The notes: generated from the sequence alone by a model not told the origin. Positions 11,568 through 49,844 are shown, counted from the first letter of the stretch. The stretch is DNA of 64,000 nt from Candidatus Sungiibacteriota bacterium (GCA_016432465.1 CP066690.1:398823-462822), one strand, 5' to 3'. Numbers and translations: made by a program.

Positions 11568-11677
11568 AACAGTAGCGGCCGCGAGTATATCTAAACAAAG
11601 CCCTCCGCTTGTCCCTAATAAAACGGCCATTAGAAACAGCCGGAAGTATTCGTCTCCTTGCCCGCCCCGCTTATAGC

Positions 11678-11752
11678 GGGCCGTTAGAACAGCCTGGAGT
11701 GTTCGTCTCCTTGTCACGGAGAAGGTCACGGGTTCAAATCCCGTACGGCCCG
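11678..11752 (+). tRNA. tRNA-Asp(GTC)
   Basis: Acceptor gggccgt/acggccc, D stem gaac/gttc, anticodon arm tctcc-ttGTCac-ggaga, T arm acgggttcaaatcccgt. No CCA. Confidence 0.75.
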
Positions 11753-11770
11753 CTATGTGCGGGGTTCATA

Positions 11771-12109
11771 GAGAAGGTCACGGGTTCAAATCCCGTACGG
11801 GATTTGAGGGGGCGAAAGATAAAGTCTTTCGCGGGAAATTTAGCGAGCCAGTGAAACTGTGCGAGCGTTAAAAATTTCCCGGGGTTTGCCGAGGAGGCAA
11901 ACTGAAAAACGCAAACTTCTTTGCGTTTTGAAAACCCGGGGTCAAAGCACTGCTTTGACGGGCATTTTAGCGAGCCGTCCTGAGTTTATCGAAGGACGTG
12001 CGAGCGTTAAGAAATGCCCGGGAATTTGTCGAGGAGACAAATTCGAAGGAGCGCGAAGCCTGCCGGAGGCAGTGCGTAGCGCGGGTGAGGAAAAATCCCG
12101 TACGGCCCG
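11771..12109 (+). repeat. Long variant of the tRNA-associated structured repeat element, flanked by duplicated tRNA-Asp T-arm/3'-end segments
   Basis: Bases 11771-11800 duplicate the tRNA-Asp T arm. The internal 45-nt unit gcgagcgttaa.aaat.cccggg..tttg.cgaggag.caaa occurs twice. The hairpin aaaacgcaaacttctttgcgtttt is followed by gaaaaccc. The element ends gcgggtgagga, followed by aaaatcccgtacggcccg, which duplicates 11735-11752. Confidence 0.6.
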
Positions 12110-12283
12110 TAGATAAAATAAAGTGGTGGCGCAAGCTACCATTTTATTTTGTCTTATGGGCTAGGCGAGATTTGAAGGGTATTCCAAAACGCAAACTGCT
12201 TTGCGTTTTGGAAACCCAGTTGGGATCACGTGTATTAGTATGATAACTGAATAAAAGGAGCCACTTTTCTGTGGCTCGATGAT

Positions 12284-13474: not shown

Positions 13475-14611
13475 ATGGAATTAGATATAGCACCAAAAAA
13501 AGAAGAGGAGTTAAGGGGAAAGCTCGCGAAAAAACACGACCCGGAAAGCGAACGACTGGTTCGTTTTCTTGCCATGCCCGATCTTTCCCGCACCACAGGA
13601 AGCCCTATTAATGAACTAGTACAGCGCATTATAAAGCTGAAGGATTTTGCGGACTTTGATATTATTCGGGTTCCGGAAATTGTGCCTGTGGATATAAGTT
13701 TTGATCTTTTTGATTTTCCGCAAGACCACCCGGCGCGCTCCCGGTCAGATACCTACTACGTGGACGAAAAACACATCCTGCGAACCCACACCACTATTAT
13801 GTGGTACTACTGGCTGAACGAGCCAGAAGTAAAAAGTAAAATTGAAAAAGGTAAAAGCATTGGTGCGTTATCATACGGGAAAGTGTACCGCAAAGACGAA
13901 ATAGACCGGCAGCATATGAACGTATTTCACCAGATGGATGGATGGTATCTTTGCCGGAAGGACGAAAAAATAATTACATCCGAAGATTTACAGAACGTGC
14001 TGGTTGAAATAGCCAAAGCGGTGTTTGGTAAGGACGTGAAATACCGCTTTAATGAAGATACGTTTCCGTATACGGACCCGAGTTTGGAAATGGAGATAGA
14101 AAAGAACGGAAAGTGGATTGAGGTACTGGGAAGTGGAGTAGTAAAGGGAAGCGTTCTTAAAAATTTGGGCGTTGACCCGAATCTTTATAACGGCTGGGCA
14201 TTCGGATTCGGCTTGGAGCGCTTGGCGATTGTAAGCATGGAACTGCCGGACATAAGATTGCTCTGGTCTGAGGACGAGCGCGTAAAAAAACAACTGCGCT
14301 TAGGAAATAAGTTTAAAGAAGTCAGTAAATTTCCCCCCATTACCCGCGACATTTCCTTTATTGTTGATAAAAACTTCATCCCCAATAATTATTTTGATCT
14401 GATAAGAGACATCGGCGGGAATATAGTTGAAGAGGTCCGGCTATTGGATAAATATGAAAATCCGGAAAAATTCGGCCCAGACAAAATAAGCTACACATAT
14501 CGAATCGTATACAGAAGCAACGAACGGACCCTCGAGACCAAAGGGGTAGATCCCATACAAGATAAGATATATCTGGAGACCAAAAAACAATTTAGGGCGG
14601 AACTTAGATAA
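13475..14611 (+). CDS. pheS: Phenylalanine--tRNA ligase alpha subunit
   Basis: Class II motif 3 FGFGLERLAI with upstream motifs. The 378-aa protein has N- and C-terminal extensions. Confidence 0.85.
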   Translation: MELDIAPKKEEELRGKLAKKHDPESERLVRFLAMPDLSRTTGSPINELVQRIIKLKDFADFDIIRVPEIVPVDISFDLFDFPQDHPARSRSDTYYVDEKHILRTHTTIMWYYWLNEPEVKSKIEKGKSIGALSYGKVYRKDEIDRQHMNVFHQMDGWYLCRKDEKIITSEDLQNVLVEIAKAVFGKDVKYRFNEDTFPYTDPSLEMEIEKNGKWIEVLGSGVVKGSVLKNLGVDPNLYNGWAFGFGLERLAIVSMELPDIRLLWSEDERVKKQLRLGNKFKEVSKFPPITRDISFIVDKNFIPNNYFDLIRDIGGNIVEEVRLLDKYENPEKFGPDKISYTYRIVYRSNERTLETKGVDPIQDKIYLETKKQFRAELR

Positions 14612-15572: not shown

Positions 15573-18500
15573 TTGGCAAAGAAAAAATCTAGGGCCAAAA
15601 CCAAAAAACGACTGCCCAAACGCCCTCCTCGTCAAAAAAGACGGACTATTAGGGCTGGGTCAAAAACCCCCACAACAAAATCCGGCGAATCGTATACAGC
15701 CAAAGACATTTATGTTTTGGAGGGACTAGAGCCGGTACGGAAACGTCCGGGAATGTATATCGGCTCAACCGGAGTTGACGGCCTGCATCATTTAATTTGG
15801 GAGGTGCTAGACAACAGTATTGACGAGGCTATGGCAGGATATGCCAAAAACGTCGCCATAACGCTTTTGGGGAACAATAAAGTAATGGTAATTGACGACG
15901 GTCGTGGAATACCGGTTGAAACACATAAACAAACAAAAAAATCGGCTTTAGAAACAGTAATGACCACGCTTCATGCCGGGGCCAAATTTGGAGGCGAGTC
16001 CTACAAGGTTTCCGGCGGACTTCACGGCGTAGGGGTTTCGGTTGTCAACGCTCTTTCTATTTGGATGAAAACGGAGGTGTGCCGTGACGGATATCAGTAT
16101 GCGCAGGAATATTCGCGCGGCAAACCCAAATATGCTGTAAAAAAAACGGGAAAGTGCCGAGGCTCCGGAACGGCAGTTACTTTTGAACCCGACCCAGAAG
16201 TATTTGAAAAAATACAGTTTGACTGGGAGCGAATCCTTGACCACATCAGACAACAGGCCTATCTCACCAAAGGAGTAAAAATTTCAGTGATTGACCGGCG
16301 AGAAGGCGGAAGGGCTAAAGATAATTCATCGCTCGAAACCCAATACTCGTTCTATTTTGAAGGTGGCATCATTTCCTATATTCAGTATCTCAACAGAAAC
16401 GAAGCACCCAAACACGAAAATATTTTTTATGTCTCTAAAGAGGCCGGTATCGACGGGAAAAAACTTTTAGTGGAGGCGGCTTTTCAGTATACGGACGATC
16501 TGCAAGGAAAAGAGGTTTCTTTTGCTAATAATATCCACACTGGCGAGGGCGGCATGCATCTTACCGGATTCCGTACCGCCCTAACACGCGCCTTAAACGA
16601 CTATGCCCGTAAAAATGAATACTTTAAAAAAGACGACGAAACACTTACCGGCGACGACGTACGCGAAGGAATTACTGCGATAATTTCTGTAAAATTGCGG
16701 GAGCCGCAGTTTGAAGGACAAACCAAGGCCAAACTTGGAAATCCCGAAGCGCGCACGGCCGTAGAAACAGTCGTGGGGGAATCAGTAAAAGAATGGCTGG
16801 AAAAATATCCGCGCGACGCGCAGGAAATTATTGGAAAAGCGCTTCTGGCGCAAAAAGCGCGAAAAGCTGCCAAGGCGGCGCGGGATACCGTACTGCGTAA
16901 AGGCGCGTTTGAGGGCCTAATGCTTCCGGGGAAACTTGCTGATTGCCAATCGCGCAATCCGGAGGAGTCGGAATTGTTTCTGGTGGAGGGGGATTCCGCA
17001 GGGGGCTGTTTTTCCGGAGACACAAAGATTGCCTTATTAGACGGACGCAATCTATCATTCAGAGAACTTATTCCAGAGGCAAGGGCTGGAAAAAAACATT
17101 ACTGTTACACCATGCGCAACGATGGAAGTATTAATATCGCTCAAATTGTAAATCCGCGTCTGACCAAAAGTAAAGCAGAAGTCATAAAAATTATCTTGGA
17201 TAACGACGAAGAAATTGTTTGTACCACAGATCATAAATTTATGTTGGCCGACGGCTCTTTTAAGGAGGCGCGGTGTCTGCAACCGCAAGATTCCCTTATG
17301 CCTCTATATCGTCAATTTTCTAAACTCGGAGGGCGAATCACTATTAAAGGATATGAGATGGTATACGACCCCCTTGAGCTCCGCTGGATTTTCACCCACC
17401 TTCTTTCTGACAGATATAATCTTGAACACAGCACCTACCTCGAAAGCGACGGCGCACATCGACACCACAAAGATTTTAACAAACTAAACAACAACCCAGA
17501 AAATATTATACGCCTCACCGATGAAAACCACTTAGAACTGCATCGGCGCTTAGCGAAAATGTTTCTTCATCGTCCAGAAATTCAGGCGAAAGCGACGGCT
17601 ACAAAACGCACGGCTACCTACCGAGAAATGGCACGCCAAAAGACACTTGAAAAAAAGGGGCTCTTTAGCAGAAACGCAAAAAAACAATGGGAAAATGATA
17701 CGTATAAACAATATATGTTGAAAAAGTTTCTGGAATTTTATAGGACACACGAGGAATATAGAAAAAAGAATAACCAGCTGCTTGATAAAATACAAAAGAA
17801 ATACTGGGCAGATGAGAAGAACAGAGAAAAACAGGCACTGCGGACAAAAGAATTTTTCATAACTAATCCGGACAGAAAAATACGGCTTGCCGAAATCGCA
17901 AAACAACAATGGAGAGATGAAAAACTGCTACGCTGGCGCGCGTCAAAAACGCGCGGGCAATGGACGCCGGAATTTCGAGTAAAACGATATGCTGCATATA
18001 ATCAGACGTATCTGCGCAAAGCCCTTGAAGTACTCAGGCAAATTTACGATAAATACGGGTCCGCCAGTGAACAGAAATACAACGAAATTCGCCAAAGGAC
18101 TGGTGATAGGAACTTAATTAGACTTTCAACAGTCTGCCAAAGGTTTTTTGAAAATGATCAAAAAAAACTTACAGAGGCAGTAATAAATTATAATCACAAG
18201 GTTAAAAAAGTAATTCCGTTAGCGGAGCATATAGATGTATACGACCTTGAAGTCCCGGAGACACACAACTTCGCACTGGCCTCCGGGGTGTTTGTCCATA
18301 ACAGCGCAAAGCAGGGCCGCGATAGAAAATTTCAGGCGATTCTGCCTCTTCGCGGAAAAATTTTAAATGTGGAAAAAGCGCGTCTGGACAAAATGCTCGC
18401 CTCCAAAGAAATTAAATCACTAATCATTGCTCTTGGCGCTGCCATTGGCGACGAATTTGACGAATCACGGCTCCGCTATCATCGCACCGTTATAATGACC

Positions 18501-18989
18501 GACGCTGACGTTGACGGCGCGCACATCCGAACCCTGCTTCTTACTCTTTTTTATCGCTATTTTCCAATCGTGGTTGAACGCGGTTACTTATATATAGCCC
18601 AACCGCCTTTGTATAGAATTCAGTCGGGGAGGGTTGTTCATTATGCCTATTCTGACGCGGAGAAAGATAAACTGGTTGCTGAATTTAAAAAGCAAAAATT
18701 AGAAACCAAACGCGTCCGGACAGAGGCTAAGGGTACCGAGGTGTCCGAAGAAGTAATGGAGGAAACAAAGGGTATTATTATTCAACGCTACAAAGGCTTG
18801 GGCGAGATGAATCCGTCCCAACTTTGGGAAACCACCATGGATCCGCAAATCCGTACCATGAAGCAGGTCACACTAGAAGACGCCACAGAAGCGGACAGAA
18901 TTTTTGATATTTTGATGGGGGACGAAGTGTTGCCGCGAAAGAAATTTATACAAACTCACGCCAAAGCAGTTAAAAATTTAGACATCTAA
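15573..18989 (+). CDS. gyrB: DNA gyrase subunit B, interrupted in-frame by an intein
   Basis: GHKL ATPase motifs (GLHHLIWEVLDNSIDEAMAGYA) and the TOPRIM motif EGDSAGG. C-terminal gyrB motifs are present. The protein is 1138 aa including a 432-aa intein. Confidence 0.9.
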   Translation: MAKKKSRAKTKKRLPKRPPRQKRRTIRAGSKTPTTKSGESYTAKDIYVLEGLEPVRKRPGMYIGSTGVDGLHHLIWEVLDNSIDEAMAGYAKNVAITLLGNNKVMVIDDGRGIPVETHKQTKKSALETVMTTLHAGAKFGGESYKVSGGLHGVGVSVVNALSIWMKTEVCRDGYQYAQEYSRGKPKYAVKKTGKCRGSGTAVTFEPDPEVFEKIQFDWERILDHIRQQAYLTKGVKISVIDRREGGRAKDNSSLETQYSFYFEGGIISYIQYLNRNEAPKHENIFYVSKEAGIDGKKLLVEAAFQYTDDLQGKEVSFANNIHTGEGGMHLTGFRTALTRALNDYARKNEYFKKDDETLTGDDVREGITAIISVKLREPQFEGQTKAKLGNPEARTAVETVVGESVKEWLEKYPRDAQEIIGKALLAQKARKAAKAARDTVLRKGAFEGLMLPGKLADCQSRNPEESELFLVEGDSAGGCFSGDTKIALLDGRNLSFRELIPEARAGKKHYCYTMRNDGSINIAQIVNPRLTKSKAEVIKIILDNDEEIVCTTDHKFMLADGSFKEARCLQPQDSLMPLYRQFSKLGGRITIKGYEMVYDPLELRWIFTHLLSDRYNLEHSTYLESDGAHRHHKDFNKLNNNPENIIRLTDENHLELHRRLAKMFLHRPEIQAKATATKRTATYREMARQKTLEKKGLFSRNAKKQWENDTYKQYMLKKFLEFYRTHEEYRKKNNQLLDKIQKKYWADEKNREKQALRTKEFFITNPDRKIRLAEIAKQQWRDEKLLRWRASKTRGQWTPEFRVKRYAAYNQTYLRKALEVLRQIYDKYGSASEQKYNEIRQRTGDRNLIRLSTVCQRFFENDQKKLTEAVINYNHKVKKVIPLAEHIDVYDLEVPETHNFALASGVFVHNSAKQGRDRKFQAILPLRGKILNVEKARLDKMLASKEIKSLIIALGAAIGDEFDESRLRYHRTVIMTDADVDGAHIRTLLLTLFYRYFPIVVERGYLYIAQPPLYRIQSGRVVHYAYSDAEKDKLVAEFKKQKLETKRVRTEAKGTEVSEEVMEETKGIIIQRYKGLGEMNPSQLWETTMDPQIRTMKQVTLEDATEADRIFDILMGDEVLPRKKFIQTHAKAVKNLDI
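17007..18302 (+). mobile_element. Intein (432 aa) with HNH-type homing endonuclease domain inside gyrB
   Basis: It starts with Cys right after EGDSAGG (CFSGDTKIALLDG, block A). It ends ...VFVHN followed by Ser (SAKQGRD). Its internal HNH-like motif is DGAHRHHKDFNKLNNNPENIIRLTDENHLELH. Confidence 0.8.
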
Positions 18990-40155: not shown

Positions 40156-40185
40156 CGCCAAGTCTGACTTGGTGGTTTTTTATTA
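40156..40185 (+). terminator. Rho-independent terminator built on the CCAAGTCTGACTTGG palindrome
   Basis: cgccaagtctgacttggtgg followed by ttttttatt, directly after hsp20. Confidence 0.65.
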
Positions 40186-40758
40186 CTGTTTCTTTTCTAT
40201 TTTACATACAACCGATTCGTCTGTATTTTTTGATGGCAGAACAAACTCCAAAACTCTTTCTATTATTTTTTCTCTTATTGGTATATCAAAATTGGCATTT
40301 TCAAGTTCTTTTACGATACTCTCGGATTTTTTTATGAGCTCATCCGGCACCGTATTTGTTTTCTGTCCGGCGACACTTAATATCCCCTGATTTTTTGGGG
40401 GGTTTATTTTTTTTGACGATACAGTGACGGTTTTTATTTCCTCAATGTTTTTCTTCAATTCTCCTATTAGTACCGCGCGTCTTTCTTTGGGGTCTTCCGG
40501 CAAGATCGCGTCCTCTACAAATTGTCTTATCTCCTGCCGGTCTCTGCGGCCGGCAATTCCAATGAAAGCCATTGCTTTTTCGCGAAAATCTGCGGGTAAG
40601 GAATACCAACCGATCGCAATAAAAACTAAAATAGCTAAAATAGTAACAAAAAATTTCATAACATGTCTTCTATTTAAAAATTCTAACAGCCCCGAAAGCC
40701 TCCTGCAAATCGACACACCCCCACACTCATACATGGGTGTGGGGCGGTATCTGCCCAC
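40183..40758 (-). CDS. Hypothetical membrane-anchored protein
   Basis: 191 aa with an N-terminal TM helix FFVTILAILVFIAIGWY. Confidence 0.4.
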   Translation of the reverse strand: MGRYRPTPMYECGGVSICRRLSGLLEFLNRRHVMKFFVTILAILVFIAIGWYSLPADFREKAMAFIGIAGRRDRQEIRQFVEDAILPEDPKERRAVLIGELKKNIEEIKTVTVSSKKINPPKNQGILSVAGQKTNTVPDELIKKSESIVKELENANFDIPIREKIIERVLEFVLPSKNTDESVVCKIEKKQ

Positions 40759-40959
40759 GAGCCCGAAAAGAGTCGAAGTCTCTCTTCCCGAAGGAAGTAA
40801 GACTTCGGCGTAATTTTTCAGAATGGTGAGTAGCTGTGTGGGGTGAGGGGTTTACTTCTTAAAAAAATTATGTTAGAATAGAGGTTACTCATCTGAAACC
40901 ACAACCTATAGCCCAGAGAGTTATAGTAGTACTTAAAGCCCTTTTACACCAAAAAATGA

Positions 40960-40989
40960 ATCCCCCCACCTTCCGGTTGGTGGGGGGAT
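40960..40989. repeat. Stand-alone hairpin with the tcccccacc/ggtggggga inverted-repeat ends
   Basis: atccccccacc-ttccggtt-ggtggggggat lies immediately upstream of the tRNA array. Confidence 0.6.
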
Positions 40990-40997
40990 GAACCTGC

Positions 40998-41072
40998 TGG
41001 GGGATCTGCTAATTGGCAGGCGACTGGACTTTGGATCCAGAGATGAAGGTTCGAATCCTTCTCCCCCAGCCA
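40998..41072 (+). tRNA. tRNA-Gln(TTG)
   Basis: Acceptor tggggga/tccccca with discriminator g and CCA. The anticodon arm is ctgga-cttTGga-tccag and the T arm is gaaggttcgaatccttc. Confidence 0.7.
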
Positions 41073-41111
41073 AGTCTGACTTGGCCCAGCCAACCTCTGA
41101 CAAAATCCTGC

Positions 41112-41187
41112 TGCAGGGTCGGATAACTGGCAATCCAACGGACTGTTAATCCGTACGATGAGGGTTCGAATCCCTCCCCTGCAGCCA
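41112..41187 (+). tRNA. tRNA-Asn(GTT)
   Basis: Acceptor tgcaggg/ccctgca, anticodon arm acgga-ctGTTaa-tccgt, T arm gagggttcgaatccctc, CCA encoded. Confidence 0.75.
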
Positions 41188-41215
41188 ATCCTACTAATAG
41201 ATAGGGGATTCGAGT

Positions 41216-41291
41216 TGGGAGGTCGTCTAACTGGTAGGACGCCGGGCCCTGAACTCGGAAACCGAAGGTTCGAACCCTTCCCTCCCAACCA
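41216..41291 (+). tRNA. tRNA-Gln(CTG), with an atypical anticodon loop
   Basis: Acceptor tgggagg/cctccca, anticodon arm ccggg-ccCTGaa-ctcgg, T arm gaaggttcgaacccttc, CCA encoded. Confidence 0.55.
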
Positions 41292-41345
41292 AGCTAATCT
41301 TGGCCAACCAATTTGCTTTGCGTAACCTGCTTGACCATTATCTGT

Positions 41346-41419
41346 TGCGGGGAGAGCTGGCGCTCCCACCGGTCTCATAAGCCGAGTGGCGTGCGGTTCA
41401 ATTCCGCCCTCCGCAACCA
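41346..41419 (+). tRNA. tRNA, anticodon CAT (Met/Ile2), with a short D arm
   Basis: Acceptor tgcgggg/ctccgca, loop ctCATaa, T arm tgcggttcaattccgcc, CCA encoded. Confidence 0.6.
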
Positions 41420-41429
41420 AACTCCATGT

Positions 41430-41507
41430 CAGGGTGTCGCCCAGTCCGGCCAGGGCGCTTGGCTTGGGACCAAGAGGTCGTAGGTTCAAATCCTACCACC
41501 CTGACCA
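41430..41507 (+). tRNA. tRNA-Pro(TGG)
   Basis: Acceptor cagggtg/caccctg, D stem gccc/gggc, anticodon arm cttgg-ctTGGga-ccaag, T arm gtaggttcaaatcctac, CCA. Confidence 0.75.
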
Positions 41508-41540
41508 ACTCTTTTTTGATAAATCAGGACGCGTTTCAGT

Positions 41541-41616
41541 GGGGCCGTAGCTCAGTTGGGAGAGCGCCTGACCTGCAATCAGGGGGTCGTCGGTTCAAGT
41601 CCGACCGGTTCCACCA
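41541..41616 (+). tRNA. tRNA-Ala(TGC)
   Basis: Acceptor ggggccg/cggttcc with the G3:U70 pair, anticodon arm cctga-ccTGCaa-tcagg, T arm gtcggttcaagtccgac, CCA. Confidence 0.8.
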
Positions 41617-41643
41617 AAAACTTTTGGATGCAGTTCAAACGGG

Positions 41644-41720
41644 GCGGGTGTGGCCGAATGGCTAAGGCGCCAGCCTTCCAAGTTGGTTTTTTGTGGGTTC
41701 GAGTCCCACCACCCGCTCCA
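41644..41720 (+). tRNA. tRNA-Trp(CCA)
   Basis: Acceptor gcgggtg/cacccgc, anticodon arm ccagc-ctTCCAa-gttgg, T arm gtgggttcgagtcccac, CCA. Confidence 0.7.
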
Positions 41721-41863
41721 AATTTGATAAGAGGGACTCGAAGGGTATTTTAAAAAGCAAATGTTTTTGCTTTTTAAAAACCCAGGCTCCGAAGGAGCGC
41801 GGAGCCTCCGACAGAAGTCGGAGTGCGAAGCGCGAGTGAGGAGGAGTCCCACCACCCGCTCCA
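41721..41863 (+). repeat. tRNA-associated structured repeat element (copy 1) with a 20-nt duplication of the tRNA-Trp 3' end
   Basis: Core gggactcgaagggtatttt + hairpin aaaaagcaaatgtttttgcttttt + aaaaccc + ggctccgaaggagcgcggagcc + tccgacagaagtcggag + tgcgaagcgcgagtgaggagg. Then gagtcccaccacccgctcca, identical to 41701-41720. Confidence 0.7.
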
Positions 41864-41893
41864 AGACTTTTCTTCCCAGAGTCGAATATCGGT

Positions 41894-41968
41894 GGTGACC
41901 TTGGCCGAGAGACGAGGCATCGGACTGTGGCTCCGAGCACGTGGGTTTGAATCCCATAGGTCACCCCA
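41894..41968 (+). tRNA. tRNA-His(GTG) with encoded G-1
   Basis: g-gtgacct...aggtcac-c-cca; anticodon arm tcgga-ctGTGgc-tccga; T arm gtgggtttgaatcccat. Confidence 0.75.
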
Positions 41969-41980
41969 ACCCCTTCTGGT

Positions 41981-42056
41981 GTGGCTGTCGCCGAAATGGA
42001 CAGGCGCCAGATTGCAAATCTGGTCTATGCGGGTTCGAATCCCGTCAGCCACTCCA
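41981..42056 (+). tRNA. tRNA-Cys(GCA)
   Basis: Acceptor gtggctg/cagccac, anticodon arm ccaga-ttGCAaa-tctgg, T arm gcgggttcgaatcccgt, CCA. Confidence 0.75.
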
Positions 42057-42086
42057 AATCTGATCAACCAAACCACTTGAATCCGG

Positions 42087-42162
42087 GCCACGGTAGCTCA
42101 GACGGTAGAGCGCTGGTCTGAAGAACCGGAGGTCGCTAGCTCGAAACTAGCCCGTGGCACCA
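42087..42162 (+). tRNA. tRNA-Phe(GAA)
   Basis: Acceptor gccacgg/ccgtggc, D arm gctcagacggtagagc, anticodon arm ctggt-ctGAAga-accgg, T arm gctagctcgaaactagc, CCA. Confidence 0.8.
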
Positions 42163-42173
42163 AGATTCCCTGC

Positions 42174-42252
42174 GGTGGCGTAGCTTAGCCAGGCCTAAAG
42201 CGCCGGCCCGTCAAGCCGGAGGTCACGGGTTCGAATCCCGTCGCCATCGCCA
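42174..42252 (+). tRNA. tRNA-Asp(GTC)
   Basis: Acceptor ggtggcg/cgccatc, anticodon arm ccggc-ccGTCaa-gccgg, T arm acgggttcgaatcccgt, disc g, CCA. Confidence 0.7.
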
Positions 42253-42284
42253 AGTCTGACTTGGCCATCGCCAAATCGTTGAGT

Positions 42285-42359
42285 GGGCGGTTAGCTCAGC
42301 GGAAGAGCATCTCGTTTACACCGAGGGGGTCGTAGGTTCAAATCCTACACCGCCCACCA
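42285..42359 (+). tRNA. tRNA-Val(TAC)
   Basis: Acceptor gggcggt/accgccc, D arm gctcagcggaagagc, anticodon arm tctcg-ttTACac-cgagg, T arm gtaggttcaaatcctac, CCA. Confidence 0.75.
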
Positions 42360-42412
42360 AGTCTGACTTGGCCCGCCAAACAACACACTAAAATTAATAA
42401 CGGTAGGACAGC

Positions 42413-42499
42413 GGGTCGGAGCGGTGATGGGTGACACCAGCGGACTCCAAATCCGTCGACCAAATGGTCTTGGGGGTTCGAATCCTCCCCGGCCCGCCA
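42413..42499 (+). tRNA. Class II (long variable arm) tRNA with anticodon CCA; its body is near-identical to tRNA-Tyr
   Basis: Acceptor gggtcgg/ccggccc. Its D arm gagcggtgatgggtgacaccagc is identical to the Tyr tRNA at 42637. The anticodon arm is gcgga-ctCCAaa-tccgt. Long variable arm, T arm gggggttcgaatcctcc, CCA. Confidence 0.5.
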
Positions 42500-42535
42500 A
42501 GTCTGACTTGGCCCGCCAACCCAAAAAAATCCAGT

Positions 42536-42612
42536 GTGCCGTTAACTCAGCCCGGTAGAGTTCCAGACTCTTAATCTGGGAGCCAGAGGTTCGAATCCTC
42601 TACGGCACACCA
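42536..42612 (+). tRNA. tRNA-Lys(CTT)
   Basis: Acceptor gtgccgt/acggcac, anticodon arm ccaga-ctCTTaa-tctgg, T arm agaggttcgaatcctct, CCA. Confidence 0.75.
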
Positions 42613-42636
42613 AGTCTAAACCGAAATATCAGAGGT

Positions 42637-42724
42637 GGGTGGGAGCGGTGATGGGTGACACCAGCGGACTGTAACTCCGTGGGACCAAAAATCCTTGTAG
42701 GTTCAAATCCTACCCCACCCACCA
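42637..42724 (+). tRNA. tRNA-Tyr(GTA), class II
   Basis: Acceptor gggtggg/cccaccc, anticodon arm gcgga-ctGTAac-tccgt, long variable arm, T arm gtaggttcaaatcctac, CCA. Confidence 0.75.
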
Positions 42725-42748
42725 AACCCAAACAATAGAAACTCTTGT

Positions 42749-42831
42749 GCCGGGGTGGTGGAATTGGTAGACACTGCGGACTTAGGATCCGCTGGGCAAC
42801 CGTGCAGGTTCGAGTCCTGTCCCCGGCACCA
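42749..42831 (+). tRNA. tRNA-Leu(TAG), class II
   Basis: Acceptor gccgggg/ccccggc, anticodon arm gcgga-ctTAGga-tccgc, long variable arm, T arm gcaggttcgagtcctgt, CCA. Confidence 0.75.
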
Positions 42832-42842
42832 GATTTCCAAGT

Positions 42843-43070
42843 CGCGGGATGGCGGAACTTGGCAGACGCTCCAGATCGAGGGTCTGGTGGGAAACCGTGA
42901 GGGTTAAAATCCCGTCGCCATCGCCAAGTCTGACCAAACGGGATTTGAAGGGTATTTCAAAACATGAATGTCTTCATGTTTTGAAAACCCGGGTTCCGAA
43001 GGAGCGCGGAGCCTCCGACAGAAGTCGGAGTGCGAAGCGCGGGTGAGGAAAAATCCCTCTCCCGCGACCA
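42843..43070 (+). tRNA. tRNA-Leu(GAG)-like class II gene interrupted within its T loop by a 144-nt insertion
   Basis: The 5' part (42843-42913) has acceptor cgcggga, anticodon arm ccaga-tcGAGgg-tctgg and T stem/loop gagggttaaaatccc. The matching 3' part, aaaatccctc-tcccgcg-a-cca, is at 43050-43070. Confidence 0.5.
42914..43057 (+). repeat. tRNA-associated structured repeat element (copy 2) inserted in a tRNA T loop, carrying a tRNA-Asp-like 3' fragment
   Basis: gtcgccatcgccaagtctgacc resembles the tRNA-Asp 3' end plus the palindrome. Then the core ggatttgaagggtatttcaaaacatgaatgtcttcatgttttgaaaacccgggttccgaaggagcgcggagcctccgacagaagtcggagtgcgaagcgcgggtgagga; flanked by duplicated aaaatccc. Confidence 0.65.
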
Positions 43071-43097
43071 CACAAATAATTGTGACCAGCAGACAGA

Positions 43098-43175
43098 GCA
43101 CCCGTAGCTCAATCGGACTAGAGCGTCTGCCCTGTAAGCAGAGGGTTGTCAGTTCAAATCTGACCGGGTGCTCCA
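43098..43175 (+). tRNA. tRNA-Thr(TGT)
   Basis: Acceptor gcacccg/cgggtgc, anticodon arm tctgc-ccTGTaa-gcaga, T arm gtcagttcaaatctgac, CCA. Confidence 0.7.
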
Positions 43176-43219
43176 CCAAGCTCAGCTTGGTCCATCAATC
43201 CAGAGCTTGATATTCCGGT

Positions 43220-43306
43220 GGTGGGATGGCTGAGTCTGGCTTAAGGCAGCGGTTTGCTAAACCGTGGGCGAAAGCCTCGAGGGTTCAAATCCTTCTCCCA
43301 CCGCCA
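43220..43306 (+). tRNA. tRNA-Ser(GCT), class II
   Basis: Acceptor ggtggga/tcccacc, anticodon arm gcggt-ttGCTaa-accgt, long variable arm, T arm gagggttcaaatccttc, CCA. Confidence 0.7.
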
Positions 43307-43372
43307 AGTCTAACTTGGCTGGGGCCAAGTCTGATTTGATCACCAAAAACGAATTTCTTTTTGAAAATCAGG

Positions 43373-43448
43373 GCGCCCATAGCTCAGCGAATAGAGCGCC
43401 CCGCTACGGACGGGGAGGTCGCGGGTTTAAATCCTGCTGGGCGCTCCA
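43373..43448 (+). tRNA. tRNA-Arg(ACG)
   Basis: Acceptor gcgccca/tgggcgc, anticodon arm ccccg-ctACGga-cgggg, T arm gcgggtttaaatcctgc, CCA. Confidence 0.75.
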
Positions 43449-43458
43449 AATGCTCGGT

Positions 43459-43536
43459 GCCCGAGTAGCCCAACTGGCAGAGGCAGCGGACTTAAAATCC
43501 GAAAAGTGGTGGGTTCGAATCCCCCCTCGGGCACCA
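43459..43536 (+). tRNA. tRNA with anticodon TAA (Leu-like acceptor and T arm) but no long variable arm
   Basis: Acceptor gcccgag/ctcgggc with disc a and CCA; anticodon arm gcgga-ctTAAaa-tccga; variable region only about 5 nt; 78 nt total. Confidence 0.45.
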
Positions 43537-43549
43537 AATACTACAAAAT

Positions 43550-43680
43550 GGGATTCGAAGGGTATTTCAAAACATGAATGTCTTCATGTTTTGAAAACCC
43601 GGGCTCCGAAGGAGCGCGGAGCCTCCGACAGAAGTCGGAGTGCAAAGCGCGGGTGAGGAGGAATCCCCCCTCGGGCACCA
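43550..43680 (+). repeat. tRNA-associated structured repeat element (copy 3) with a 20-nt duplication of the upstream tRNA 3' end
   Basis: The core matches copy 2 almost exactly (ggattcgaagggtatttcaaaacatgaatgtcttcatgttttgaaaacccgggctccgaagg...gcgggtgaggagg). It is followed by gaatcccccctcgggcacca, which is identical to 43517-43536. Confidence 0.7.
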
Positions 43681-43702
43681 AAAGCGTCAAAGGAAACGCG
43701 GT

Positions 43703-43778
43703 GCAGGGATAGCTCAGTTGGTAGAGCACTGGACCGATAATCCAGAGGTCGATGGTTCGAACCCATCTCCCTGTACCA
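43703..43778 (+). tRNA. tRNA-Ile(GAT)
   Basis: Acceptor gcaggga/tccctgt, anticodon arm ctgga-ccGATaa-tccag, T arm gatggttcgaacccatc, CCA. Confidence 0.7.
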
Positions 43779-43817
43779 ACCAAAGTTCTTTTTAAAAACA
43801 ACCAAAATCTGACGTGG

Positions 43818-43896
43818 GGGCCCGTAGCTCAGCCAGGACCAGAGCAGGGGACTTCTAATCCTCTGGCCGGAGGTTCAAATCCTCCCGGGCCTACCA
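43818..43896 (+). tRNA. tRNA-Arg(TCT)
   Basis: Acceptor gggcccg/cgggcct, anticodon arm gggga-ctTCTaa-tcctc, T arm ggaggttcaaatcctcc, CCA. Confidence 0.7.
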
Positions 43897-43914
43897 ATCC
43901 CCACAAACCAAAAC

Positions 43915-43950
43915 GGGCATGTCATAAAGACATGCCTTTTGTGTTTTTTG
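43915..43950 (+). terminator. Rho-independent terminator closing the tRNA array
   Basis: ggcatgtc-ataaa-gacatgcc followed by ttttgtgtttttt. Confidence 0.75.
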
Positions 43951-44106
43951 GGGGGGACAAAATAAAAAAAGGCATCGGTTGGTGTCGCAGACATTCCAGC
44001 CGCAGATATCATGGTGGGGTTTACGCGGATCAACCCTACTTTATTTTCATCACTTAGATTGCTCTGCGAACTTTTGTGAGGCGACTCTATGATTCACTAA
44101 CTTGAA

Positions 44107-44340
44107 TTAGTTCTTTATATCTTTGTGAACACGCTTAATCATGTTTTCTATCGTTTTGTTCAACCCGCCACTTTCAACAGCAAGTTCCCGTAAAATGTCG
44201 GCCTGATTAGCTGTATCATTCACTCCTAAAAGTTGGTTTAACAACCCAGAGACCCTTTTTTGTCTTTCTTGTGCTAATTCGGTCATGAAATTCAAATCTT
44301 CTTTTCTTTCAGATTCTTTATTTGTTGGCTGTTGCTCCAT
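44107..44340 (-). CDS. Hypothetical small protein
   Basis: 77-aa ORF. Confidence 0.35.
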   Translation of the reverse strand: MEQQPTNKESERKEDLNFMTELAQERQKRVSGLLNQLLGVNDTANQADILRELAVESGGLNKTIENMIKRVHKDIKN

Positions 44341-44491
44341 ACTATTCTGTTTATAGATTTATTTGATTTTAGACCTTTAATTAGGAAGGCCCTTATACTA
44401 AATCATAGTCAATAGCATTTATTTCTCTTGGTGGAGAATGTCTGGACAAGCGGCAAACTTTTGTACGCAGACTGTATGGAGTGATGATAAG

Positions 44492-45718
44492 TCAGTTTTT
44501 GGATTCAAATAGTTCTATCTCTCTGGGTTGTTGAGCACCAAACTCTTTAATAACCCCGCGCGCTGATTCTAATACTGCAGCTTTTATTCTAACGGCATCG
44601 GTTGTGACATTGGTTAGGCCGGAATCTCGCGGCCAGAGAATACCGATATTTACGCCTTTTTGCTTTTGTATAAACTCAAGCGATTTCCTAATTTGTTCTT
44701 TGATTCGTAAGAATTTTTCTACTGTTCCTAATGAAGCTGCTGGGATGACTTTGGAAGCTCCTTCGATAAGCTCCGATACGAGATATTCGCCGGGGGTCGT
44801 TTCAAATGCGTCCATTCGGTCAAAGGGTGTATTTGGTAAAATTAATATATCTGTCGGTTGAAATTGTTCAATCACTTTTTCAACCGGCATAGGATCAAAG
44901 GCTCCGTCAACATATCGTCCGTCATTCACCTCAACCGCTTTTCGATAAGCAATCGGGGCAGCCATAGAGGCATGAAACGGGCTTATCATATCGGGTGTAG
45001 CTGTTTTTACATCTATGAATTTCGATTTGAATGTCTTGGGATCAGTAACACCGACATAGAGTTCTTGCGGCGAATCCATAATCGCTTTTTGGTCAAGAGT
45101 TTTTGGACCGTGGCGCATTGCCTTGGCGATAAAATCGACGTTCATAATCTGATGTAAGCGCCTGAAATCAATAAAATCTTTTGTGGTGCACTCTTCATAA
45201 AAAAGAGAGGTTCCAATTTGTGCTTGCTCTTTCCCCGCTGAAAAATAGGCGGCTGTGCCGGCTCCGGCAGAAATACCCACTACAACATCAAATGCTCTAC
45301 CCAAACCAACTTCGTGCAATCCCAAGGCCTGTCCAGCGCTATAAGGACCCTTCATGCCTCCTCCTAGTATTAGGAGAACAAACTTTCGTGGCCTTTCTTC
45401 TTTACCGTCCCGTCTTTGGATAAGATGATCTAAAACCGACCTTAGATTTCTCTCCCAGGCTTGAAACTCTTCGGTTCTCCTCCGTTCAAAATCAGCATTA
45501 TCTCGCAGGGCCTCCTCGTGTGCAAAGTCCATTGCCGTCATTTGCGCTTTCCATCCGATTCCGCGTCTCCAGTCCATAACTTTTTGCAGCAGCCCCCGTT
45601 CATTAAACTCCTTTGCCATTTTCTCAAATCGCTGTTGATGAAATTCAAATTCTGCCGGAATCTCCTCGGCGGAGCCAGCTGTCTCCCTTTTTATATTATT
45701 TGGTGGGCCTTCTTTCAT
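44492..45718 (-). CDS. Patatin-like phospholipase family protein
   Basis: Oxyanion motif GGGMKG and a GxSxG motif (GISAGA), plus a downstream DGA/DGG-type region. Confidence 0.75.
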   Translation of the reverse strand: MKEGPPNNIKRETAGSAEEIPAEFEFHQQRFEKMAKEFNERGLLQKVMDWRRGIGWKAQMTAMDFAHEEALRDNADFERRRTEEFQAWERNLRSVLDHLIQRRDGKEERPRKFVLLILGGGMKGPYSAGQALGLHEVGLGRAFDVVVGISAGAGTAAYFSAGKEQAQIGTSLFYEECTTKDFIDFRRLHQIMNVDFIAKAMRHGPKTLDQKAIMDSPQELYVGVTDPKTFKSKFIDVKTATPDMISPFHASMAAPIAYRKAVEVNDGRYVDGAFDPMPVEKVIEQFQPTDILILPNTPFDRMDAFETTPGEYLVSELIEGASKVIPAASLGTVEKFLRIKEQIRKSLEFIQKQKGVNIGILWPRDSGLTNVTTDAVRIKAAVLESARGVIKEFGAQQPREIELFESKN

Positions 45719-48989: not shown

Positions 48990-49844
48990 TCACAAATTTA
49001 ATTTATTCTCTAGCGCGATCTTTGGGTAGAGATCAGTAGGATAAATTTCAACCAATTTAATGCTTTGCTTCTTGCAGAAGTTTCTTTTTCTTCTAACCTC
49101 TCTGTCGTATCGCGGACTGTCTTTTAAAAGACCAAAATATTCAACGAAGGTATTTCCTATTACCCAATCCGCGCGGAAATTCGTATCAGGATATCTGGTT
49201 CCCTTTAAATGCACTATGCCCCGTTTAGTTAACCAATTATCAATTATTGCTTCAGAGATAGAATCACATAAGTGCCCGTCAGATGCTTTTGCATTCATTC
49301 TTTTATACATGCGGTGACCGTGAGACCGATGGGGTTTTAAACCAGCAGCTAGAATTGTATCATTCCAAGAACCAAAATGTTTCCTTCCAGCCTCTGAAAT
49401 ATTTCTTAACTCTCTCCTCACTGGTACTCTCTTAAGTTCTTTGTGGGCAAGGCGGATCAGTTTCAAGACTTCTTTAGCTGTAAATCGGGTCCTTGCCAAA
49501 TAACCGCATTTCCGTGAACAATATTTGCCGTCTCGTTTAAACGTATTTCCGCAGGATAAACATGCCGTAGGGAGTCTGATCCTCTTTGGAAACCTTCGAT
49601 TATTTACCTGAGCCGCACAGGATCGAGAACAATAGTTATGTGCTGAAATATCATTTGGCTGCCGAGTAAATTCCGTCATGCAGTTTCCACAATTTACTAT
49701 CCTTGCCTTTGTCTTATACTGAAATTCGCAACTTCGAGAGCAATAAAAATTATGCCCAAATTTTAAATTCTCGTTTATTCTACCCCGACTTCTATAAATC
49801 GGGTTAGAGCACTTATTACAAGAAACTTTATATAGCTTTTCCAT
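48990..49844 (-). CDS. Multi-zinc-ribbon protein with C-terminal DUF559/Vsr-like endonuclease-fold region
   Basis: At least five CxxC/CxxxC pairs in the N-terminal 130 aa. The C-terminus RADWVIGNTFVEYFG resembles PD-(D/E)xK Vsr/DUF559 proteins. Confidence 0.4.
   Translation of the reverse strand: MEKLYKVSCNKCSNPIYRSRGRINENLKFGHNFYCSRSCEFQYKTKARIVNCGNCMTEFTRQPNDISAHNYCSRSCAAQVNNRRFPKRIRLPTACLSCGNTFKRDGKYCSRKCGYLARTRFTAKEVLKLIRLAHKELKRVPVRRELRNISEAGRKHFGSWNDTILAAGLKPHRSHGHRMYKRMNAKASDGHLCDSISEAIIDNWLTKRGIVHLKGTRYPDTNFRADWVIGNTFVEYFGLLKDSPRYDREVRRKRNFCKKQSIKLVEIYPTDLYPKIALENKLNL

Follow-up and report, generated by a model that had tools for sequence, protein, structure and literature searches.

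A duplicated tRNA 3′ end that starts within the T loop is the classical mark of tRNA-targeting integrases. The genomes of the candidate phyla radiation (CPR, or Patescibacteria) are small and poorly understood, and we know of few mobile or non-coding RNA elements described in them. The tRNA array of Anabaena is reported to be redundant with genes located elsewhere and to contain pseudogenes (PMC8421152). Here, we have analyzed a 64-kb stretch of DNA from the metagenome-assembled genome (MAG) of a Candidatus Sungiibacteriota bacterium (923-kb contig); this stretch is called the window, and all positions refer to it unless another locus is named. In the window, a tRNA-Leu(GAG) gene of an accessory tRNA array is split by a structured repeat element that follows the 3′ end of a foreign tRNA-Asp. 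We consider it moderately probable that the gene was broken by recombination of its T loop with this repeat, and it would now most likely be a pseudogene.

The split gene lies in a gap of 266 nt between the tRNA-Leu(UAG) and tRNA-Thr genes. Nucleotides 42843–42913 (+ strand) represent the first 71 nt of a class II tRNA, as read from the sequence and supported by the ARAGORN call of the joined gene and by BLAST matches to tRNA-Leu genes. They comprise the acceptor strand CGCGGGA, a Leu-type D arm and the anticodon arm CCAGA-UCGAGGG-UCUGG with GAG at 42878–42880, followed by a long variable arm, the T-stem strand GAGGG, the T-loop TTAAAAT and CCC, the first three nucleotides of the T-stem 3′ strand. 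The matching 3′ end, CCCTC-TCCCGCG-A-CCA, is found at 43055–43070, within the displaced original 3′ end of the gene (43050–43070, + strand), which consists of the junction purine A and of tRNA nucleotides 57–76 (AAATCCCTC-TCCCGCG-A-CCA). In silico deletion of the 144 nucleotides 42914–43057 produced an 84-nt tRNA-Leu(gag) that ARAGORN called at its default threshold, with all seven acceptor pairs (7/7), all five T-stem pairs (5/5), A73 and CCA. Thus, the original prediction, made from the sequence alone, was right in placing the 5′ three-quarters of a class II tRNA-Leu(GAG) at this site, and its T-stem strand, acceptor strand and CCA 144 nt away. It had also proposed a search by ARAGORN with intron detection; the unspliced locus was called neither with nor without the intron search, and the joined gene alone gave the expected tRNA. 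A very relaxed threshold applied to the split gene resulted in spurious calls only, and Rfam (E≤1) reported no tRNA at the unspliced locus. BLAST against phage and plasmid records matched only genuine tRNA-Leu genes, over query nucleotides 1–77. The tRNA itself carries several oddities, namely C33 for U33, A56 for C56 and a C1-G72 pair.

The same 8-mer, AAAATCCC, is present at the left junction (42906–42913, + strand, tRNA nucleotides 56–63), where it is the presumed crossover segment, and at the right junction (43050–43057), so that the break point is ambiguous within nucleotides 56–63. The left junction leads into the foreign tRNA-Asp 3′ end (42908–42934, + strand), which by blastn is identical in 27/27 positions to 42234–42260 and spans the 3′ half of the T loop, the acceptor 3′ strand, CCA and the trailer AGTCTGAC. 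Its presumed source is the tRNA-Asp(GUC) gene at 42174–42273 (+ strand; trailer included), as the original prediction had noted. A spacer of 13 nt (42927–42939, + strand), the first 8 nt of which are the Asp trailer and one half of a REP-like hairpin, separates CCA from the element. The left end of the latter, ACGGGATTTGAA (42938–42949, + strand), repeats an Asp-type T arm, TTCAAATCCCGT, in inverted orientation. The core of 110 nt (42940–43049, + strand), copies of which were detected by blastn and by the covariance model R1, contains successively the 5′ strand of a helix P1, GAA, the hairpin P2 (42950–42990), the 5′ strand UUCC of P3, an internal loop GAAGGA/GGGUGA, P4 (GCGC/GCGC) and a variable hairpin P5, and ends with GCGCGGGTGAGGA. 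The segment GGGATTT forms helix P1 with AAATCCC (43051–43057), and the right-junction purine A pairs with U of UUCC in P3. We refer to this element as copy A. No open reading frame (ORF) lies within it. It matched no Rfam family (cmscan of 40500–44500, E≤1), the hits being tRNA-related only and none of them falling within 42914–43057, and we found no description of it in the literature searched.

That the insert is a repeat element is borne out by two further copies in the same array, the cores of which are 97.3% (copy B) and 85.5% (copy C) identical to that of copy A over 110 nt. Copy B (43459–43682, + strand) consists of tRNA-Leu(UAA) (43459–43536), a 13-nt spacer, the core (43550–43659), a G and a duplicate (43661–43682) of Leu(UAA) nucleotides 57–76 plus 2 nt; its left end GGGATTC faces GAATCCC of the tRNA. 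Copy C (41644–41864, + strand) is built likewise from tRNA-Gly(UCC) (41644–41720), a 12-nt spacer, the core (41733–41842), a G and a duplicate (41844–41864) of Gly nucleotides 57–76, with GGGACTC facing GAGTCCC. In both cases the upstream tRNA is intact, and the core ends with GCGCG(G/A)GTGAGGA followed by one purine. Of the 3/110 core positions at which copies A and B differ, two are those paired with the right-junction dinucleotide (AA versus GG).

A further locus of the window, locus D (11678–12243, + strand), was detected by blastn and model R1 behind a second tRNA-Asp gene (11678–11753) and is an expanded, degenerate composite. A partial Asp copy ending at T-stem nucleotide 65 abuts its own inverse there (tcaaatcccgt|acgggatttga, around 11786–11807); the composite ends with GTGAGGA at 12091 and is followed by a duplicate of Asp nucleotides 57–73 (12093–12109) and by a further left-half element (12166–12243). 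Degenerate partial copies of the 5′ part of tRNA-Asp are also visible upstream of the gene (11600–11677), and a partial copy of about nucleotides 40–65 downstream; a number of small hairpins lie within the composite, as does another module (GGG.A.TTTAGCGAGCC...GTGCGAGCGTTAA.AA.T.CCCGGG), which is present twice. In the array, 16 nt past tRNA-Asn, the sequence ggggattcga (41204–41213), the reverse complement of tcgaatcccc in the T loop of that tRNA, resembles a solitary left end.

When one genome per species was searched with an exact pattern, the core turned up in nine loci. Saccharibacteria or Sungbacteria is named in the assembly title for eight of the scan loci, and two lie in a further MAG. 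A metagenome scan added four true loci, together with two chance matches in GC-rich coding sequence, and scans of viral contigs with three patterns gave no match. Outside the window, in other Patescibacteria assemblies, the hosts are tRNA-Asp (five sequence types), tRNA-Arg(GCG) and the transfer-messenger RNA (tmRNA). The order is the same throughout the family: an intact tRNA or tmRNA, a spacer, the inverted T-arm copy, the core and a direct copy of the tRNA 3′ end. The spacer ranges from 12 to 150 nt and outside the window frequently contains a terminator hairpin. In the left end, the T loop and T-stem 3′ strand of the neighbouring tRNA, from nucleotide 54 to nucleotides 63–69, are repeated in inverted orientation; this end tracks the local T arm (GGGACTC at Gly, GGGAATC at tmRNA, GAGGAATC at Arg, and 16 nt at locus L024). 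The right end, ...GCGCGGGUGAGGA and one purine, always abuts nucleotide 57 of the direct tRNA copy.

An intact upstream gene and a duplicate starting at nucleotide 57, that is, a direct repeat of the tRNA-integrase type, occur together in 10 loci (B, C, L001, L003, L004, L005, L007, L008, L010 and L023); in copy A the repeat is 8 nt. The repeats measure 14–22 nt in these 10 loci and the duplications as a whole 14–28 nt, with a fixed start at nucleotide 57 and an end that varies from nucleotide 73 to nucleotide 84. Because a complete tRNA with its own 3′ end normally precedes the element, the host gene stays functional. At the tmRNA locus (L007), CCA and the usual trailer hairpin of the genome are found only on the downstream copy, which is therefore the original end. 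In L002 and L013 the element is accompanied by a solitary tRNA 3′ fragment, with no partner within 4.6 kb and 1.1 kb, respectively. Several irregular copies were also observed. The P2 loop gaagacattc of L003 (1645–1672) is the reverse complement of gaatgtcttc in the other copies, which points to a DNA-level inversion between the hairpin arms; L009 (242–360) contains a partial second tRNA-Ser copy with a 46-nt insert between GGTTC and GAGTCC; L006 (− strand) has, downstream of its duplicate, a T-arm-like fragment with a 15-nt hairpin after GGTTCGAA; and L004 (− strand) carries a 28-nt hairpin within the acceptor strand of its duplicate. Pfam searches of the ORFs near the copies (window, L002, L003) and of ORFs shared between loci gave no integrase, recombinase or transposase. 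No reverse transcriptase gene was found near any copy examined, and the ORFs flanking the copies examined contained no TnpB, IscB or IS110-type domain.

An alignment of 14 copies, a small sample of related sequences, yielded a consensus structure in the form of a three-way junction with helices P1 to P5. P1 is formed by the left end of the element with tRNA nucleotides 57–63 of the duplicate, and P2 is a long hairpin. P3 pairs YUCC with GGAR, where R is the purine preceding nucleotide 57, so that P3 and P1 lie on one continuous 3′ strand. An invariant purine-rich 6×6 internal loop, GAAGGA/GGGUGA, then leads to P4 and to the variable P5. Paired cells amounted to 94.9% as against 84.7% in shuffles and 37–54% in slid controls. 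Among the 37 pairs, 18 show changes on both sides, a number reached by 0/500 shuffles. In single-sequence folds most copies adopt the consensus shape, and the + strand is the more stable in 14/14 copies. The compensatory changes are those of a structured RNA, with the caveat that long perfect hairpins could be maintained as DNA. The covariation, the stability of the + strand and the compensatory changes between copies A and B argue for a fold that is important, probably at the RNA level and in the orientation of the tRNA; the inverted loop of L003 and the long A/T-rich hairpin with its perfect pairing would also be compatible with a role at the DNA level. We had also considered a perfect minihelix of the invariant end CGCGGGUGAGG with the Leu(GAG) 3′ end as marking Leu(GAG) as the native end of the element. 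Since the duplex energy is no better for target 3′ ends (mean −11.5 kcal/mol) than for non-target tRNAs (−10.6 kcal/mol, sd 2.8), it was treated as compositional chance.

Copy A has the anatomy of the family, except that the 3′ end upstream of its spacer is that of Asp and not of Leu(GAG), and its two junctions have only AAAATCCC in common. Several features point to an Asp origin of the element: a 9-nt pairing links ACGGGATTTGAA to the Asp-type T arm AAATCCCGT; the left end is identical in 26/26 nt to those of the Asp-associated copies L006, L010 and L023; and the P3/P1 junction is of the AA type (UUCC/GGAA-A), which otherwise occurs only at tRNA-Asp. They lend support to the idea of the original prediction that the Asp flank was carried from an earlier insertion site, tRNA-Asp being the commonest host of the family. 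In the mechanism that we propose, an element resident behind tRNA-Asp would have been transferred or copied along with the Asp 3′ end, and the Asp-carrying unit would have undergone a single crossover with the Leu(GAG) T loop within nucleotides 57–63. The product would be Leu(1–63)-Asp(64–76)-spacer-element-Leu(57–76), with a hybrid, attL-like junction. The chimeric 5′ product could not form an acceptor stem, so that ordinary end-processing would give no Leu tRNA. Asp and Lys(CUU) genes are also present outside the array, and because of this redundancy a dead Leu(GAG) gene would be tolerated. The sequences show the anatomy, the family, the covarying fold and the hybrid junction; from these we infer in which direction the event went, that the gene has lost its function, and that a trans-acting recombinase, or else a repair or gene-conversion process, took part. 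The hybrid junction of copy A is the one hint of a circular intermediate in excision and integration.

Several observations weigh against this explanation. If the upstream 3′ end were carried along with the element, the perfectly cognate upstream ends at all five host species (Asp of several sequence types, Leu-UAA, Gly, Arg and tmRNA) would have no explanation; copies A and B have unrelated spacers despite cores that are 97% identical; the 3′ boundary of the duplicates, from nucleotide 73 to nucleotide 84, is unlike the footprint of a transposase; and the surroundings of the copies examined revealed no gene for an integrase, a transposase or a reverse transcriptase. Copy A could equally be a standard copy that was later given a 10-nt Asp conversion patch (nucleotides 64–73) between the homology blocks GGGTT..AATCCC and CCAAGTCTGAC, which it shares with tRNA-Asp. 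The loss of Leu(GAG) function would follow from the arrangement of the locus, and the sequence in which an intact Leu(GAG) gene might be sought was the window, 64 kb of the 923-kb genome. An integrase model accounts for the duplicated 3′ end, the fixed nucleotide 57 boundary, the tmRNA target and the hybrid of copy A, but fails to account for the cognate ends, the unrelated spacers and an inverted left end that matches the target. If the target is duplicated, the cognate ends are explained, but copy A and the variable length are not. Inverted and direct repeats may in part have been homogenised locally with the neighbouring tRNA through quasi-palindrome correction or gene conversion. We also considered IS91-type GTTC targeting, integron attC-type sites, IS608-type guide pairing, target-primed reverse transcription and hairpin-excision footprints; none of them explains the inverted and direct copies together with the variable spacer.

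The alternative that survives best, although we regard it as unlikely, is that the element lacks any specialised mobility and is a non-coding RNA gene of the host: a mimic of tRNA 3′ ends, made along with the adjacent tRNA and acting for example in processing or quality control, the ends of which are kept matched to that tRNA by selection or local conversion; copy A would then carry an Asp patch over nucleotides 64–73 of an intact upstream Leu(GAG) gene, a model that needs only the homology blocks present. The core is indeed strongly conserved across divergent lineages in a syntenic context, formed by an AA-kinase-family gene, tRNA-Asp, the element and a monomeric-type phenylalanyl-tRNA synthetase (PheRS) gene, and locus D lies upstream of the same PheRS gene in the window. 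The covariation and the more stable + strand in all copies also favour such a gene, as do the mainly compensatory differences between A and B and the duplicates that are 100% identical to the local tRNA while the flanking spacers are unalignable. However, seven PheRS neighbourhoods, sampled through PheRS homologues and unselected for the element, had the tRNA-Asp site filled in two cases, occupied by a half element in one and empty in the four others (4/7), where tRNA-Asp is followed by a terminator and no remnant of the element is seen. The half element (L024, 3886–3955), located just upstream of PheRS, consists of a 16-nt perfect inverse of tRNA-Asp nucleotides 54–69 and of P2, with neither right half nor duplicate; hence, an inverted copy exists without a partner in cis. 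Also difficult to reconcile with a host gene are the several near-identical copies at unrelated tRNAs of one array, the orphan copies with a solitary tRNA 3′ fragment, the half elements and composite decaying copies, the inverted P2 loop of L003, which is a DNA-level event, and the terminator that separates tRNA and element in several loci. Since the element is patchy and decaying, a selfish or dispensable unit fits better than an essential RNA gene.

It is improbable that the 110-nt unit is the attR-side arm of a larger integrase-driven island or prophage targeting the T loop, the short forms being deletion derivatives. The duplicated tRNA 3′ end starting in the T loop matches the signature of tRNA integrases; in L002, the genes upstream of the element and its 3′ fragment have an accessory look (SIR2-like, DUF5677), and a distance of 4.6 kb includes no tRNA; and degenerate tRNA fragments pile up downstream of tRNA-Asp and tRNA-Ser (L006, L009, L010). 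Nevertheless, no integrase was seen in any locus, the same short form with the same left boundary recurs at >10 loci, unlike independent deletions, the left end tracks each local T arm, and RNA-type covariation is unexpected of the arm sites of an integrase.

With about the same low probability, the element might be a structured RNA or DNA of a new kind, which is mobile, is guided to T loops by base pairing and is joined or cleaved at nucleotide 57 by a ribozyme or an RNA-guided enzyme. Its 5′ segment would pair with nucleotides 57–63 and the internal YUCC with its own 3′ end, so that the last nucleotide of the element would be aligned with nucleotide 57; the tRNA 3′ end would be duplicated and the host gene would survive. 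The modelled geometry of P3 and P1, in which the last element nucleotide abuts nucleotide 57, would suit a joining or cleaving reaction. If this were true, copy A could even be processed at the RNA level.

The original prediction had left the choice between a pseudogene and an intron-like insertion removed from the precursor. The former agrees with the hybrid junction; the latter, in which the 144-nt insert would be excised by self-splicing or by an endonuclease and a ligase to give a functional Leu(GAG) tRNA, is quite unlikely. Exact removal restores a perfect cloverleaf with A73 and CCA, P1 and P3 set the last element nucleotide and nucleotide 57 on one strand against two guide-like segments, and the whole array appears to be one transcription unit. 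But the element normally lies downstream of an intact tRNA and so needs no splicing, as in the 10 other copies with a whole upstream tRNA. No Rfam intron or ribozyme family was matched at E≤1, and a script covering 9 junction registers and bulge offsets found no bulge-helix-bulge motif and no central 4-bp helix. Furthermore, the insert contains a foreign acceptor strand and CCA, which an intron has no reason to carry, and the tRNA is itself degenerate (C33, A56). The insert is shorter than the self-splicing group I introns known to us, and the scan of ORFs in the window, 64 kb of the 923-kb genome, revealed no splicing endonuclease or ligase.

Finally, it is very improbable that assembly of the MAG produced the whole arrangement, or the Asp-like 13 nt, by a chimeric join at short repeats. 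In favour of such an artefact, near-identical T loops and trailers crowd the array together with three 110-nt repeats, and look-ups of spurious ORFs spanning the junctions found no independent contig over 42843–43070. Against it, both flanks of copy A come from the same tRNA, Leu(GAG), so that no flank was swapped at the 110-nt repeat; metagenome assembly usually employs k-mers longer than the block of 27 nt in common with Asp; the locus sits in a 923-kb contig; and an independent Logan contig (L018) confirms the neighbouring copy B region.

The array that contains copies A to C (40998–43896, + strand) comprises 21 tRNAs called by ARAGORN in 2.9 kb, with CCA encoded in all of them (21/21). At about 7 genes per kb it is an L-array as defined by at least 20 genes and at least 2 per kb. 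A promoter-like site precedes it (40851–40879) and a terminator-like hairpin follows (43915–43937). Two relatives have no array beside the patatin gene that flanks it here, and the patatin loci of relatives that were fetched contained no intact orthologous array. Two of its other members deserve mention. ARAGORN calls an 87-nt tRNA-Trp(CCA) at 42413–42499 that has a long variable arm, that is, a class II tRNA with a Trp anticodon; its D-arm region gagcggtgatgggtgacaccagcggact is common to the class II tRNA-Tyr (42637–42724), and Rfam classifies it as tRNA-Sec with 48.0 bits for a gathering score of 47. The 76 nt at 41344–41419 resemble a tRNA, with CCA, the anticodon CAT and an acceptor stem of 7 bp; called by neither ARAGORN nor Rfam, they are probably another degenerate gene of the array.

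The original prediction had also described a palindrome following the Asp 3′ end. This palindrome, CCAAGTCTGACTTGG, is indeed present as a hairpin in the trailer of tRNA-Asp(GUC) (42250–42264), where it is followed by a second copy of the last 9 nt (42265–42273), with no element there today; yet it proved to be a generic hairpin of the genome. It has five exact occurrences against 0.07 expected by chance (≤2 mismatches), and its sites are 41070–41084, 42250–42264, 42357–42371, 42497–42511, 43304–43318 and 40158–40172, the last of which is the terminator stem after an HSP20 gene. After tRNA-Gln, Asp, Val and Trp it begins with the CCA of the tRNA and is followed by a second copy of the last 7–9 nt. 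The variants CCAAGCTCAGCTTGG and CCAAGCTAATCTTGG follow tRNA-Thr and tRNA-Gln(CUG), and also the tmRNA duplicate of L007. An origin of CCAAGTCTGACTTGG as an excision footprint was rejected, since this generic hairpin also terminates a protein gene.

Other genes of the window and of the compared loci were noted. The PheRS gene (13475–14611) encodes a single chain of 378 aa with a class II core and an FDX-ACB domain, which we take to be the architecture of the mitochondrial enzyme; the protein is 72–84% identical across the best 120 Patescibacteria homologues listed. The GyrB gene (15573–18989) contains an intein (Intein_splicing domain at residues 495–910), which is shared by the orthologue in L023 and is lacking in those of L022, L024, L025 and L026. 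Beside an empty tRNA-Asp site, L027 (1–1317) encodes an RVT_1 reverse transcriptase with a bAvd-like neighbour, probably a diversity-generating retroelement; no element copy is found there. On the − strand of the window, a 284-aa ORF (48990–49844) with the homing-endonuclease-associated repeat PF18780 (E=3.8e-8) and zinc-finger-like motifs lies tightly between tRNA-Pro(CGG) and tRNA-Ala(CGC), with gaps of 13 nt and 2 nt and no flanking repeats found.

The element is tied to one nucleotide position of the tRNA (56/57) and spares the host gene by duplication of its 3′ end; tmRNA is a target as well, and the element combines a covarying fold with the lack of a gene. If mobile, it would represent a miniature strategy for targeting tRNA genes and a source of tRNA chimeras and pseudogenes in arrays; if it is a functional RNA, it would be a conserved mimic of tRNA 3′ ends. 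Either way, the tRNA annotation of such genomes will miss or miscall split genes.

Among the described systems, the islands and prophages that target tRNA and tmRNA genes (tyrosine integrases acting at the T-loop sublocation, and their integrase-less, cis-mobilisable derivatives) share with this family a direct 3′ repeat starting in the T loop, a second 3′ end that keeps the gene intact, an original end displaced downstream, the tmRNA target and the hybrid junctions at non-cognate targets, as in copy A. In contrast to these islands, the element is only about 110–130 nt long, without a gene and with no integrase nearby; its left end repeats the local T arm in inverted orientation, its core has an RNA-type covarying fold, and one lineage is found at several tRNAs with cognate duplicates. 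Miniature inverted-repeat transposable elements (MITEs) and the REP/BIME, RUP and Correia-type repeats are likewise short, hairpin-rich, non-coding, near-identical in multiple copies, patchy and co-transcribed with their neighbours. Unlike them, the element has no fixed terminal inverted repeats of its own, since its paired ends (P1) derive from the target and differ between copies; its duplication has one fixed boundary (nucleotide 57) and one variable boundary, unlike that of a MITE; and it is strictly tied to tRNA or tmRNA 3′ ends.

Introns in tRNA genes, either the group I introns of bacteria or the bulge-helix-bulge introns of archaea, including those of the T arm, are also structured inserts whose removal restores a cloverleaf. 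However, the present insert has no Rfam Intron_gpI core (P3–P9), is 144 nt long as compared to about 200 nt or more, and interrupts T-loop nucleotides 56–63 instead of the anticodon loop. It differs from the archaeal introns by the lack of a bulge-helix-bulge, by the foreign acceptor strand that it carries and by family members that interrupt no gene. The omega-RNA of TnpB in IS200/IS605 elements, whose 3′ guide comes from the flank, and the bridge RNA of IS110 elements share a structured scaffold followed by about 20 nt of the flanking target and an internal pairing with the target; yet no TnpB, IscB or IS110-type gene is adjacent to the element at any locus, its target-complementary left end changes with the target, and a target duplication is present.

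As in the Anabaena array, redundancy and pseudogenes are combined in the present array, with 21 genes in 2.9 kb, encoded CCA and apparently one operon. The descriptions of long tRNA arrays consulted here mention no T-loop-associated repeat, and the present array lies in a chromosome-sized contig of a member of the CPR (Sungbacteria). By comparison with these systems, the element family is most likely previously undescribed, and the specific finding is a hybrid junction that most likely inactivates a redundant tRNA gene.

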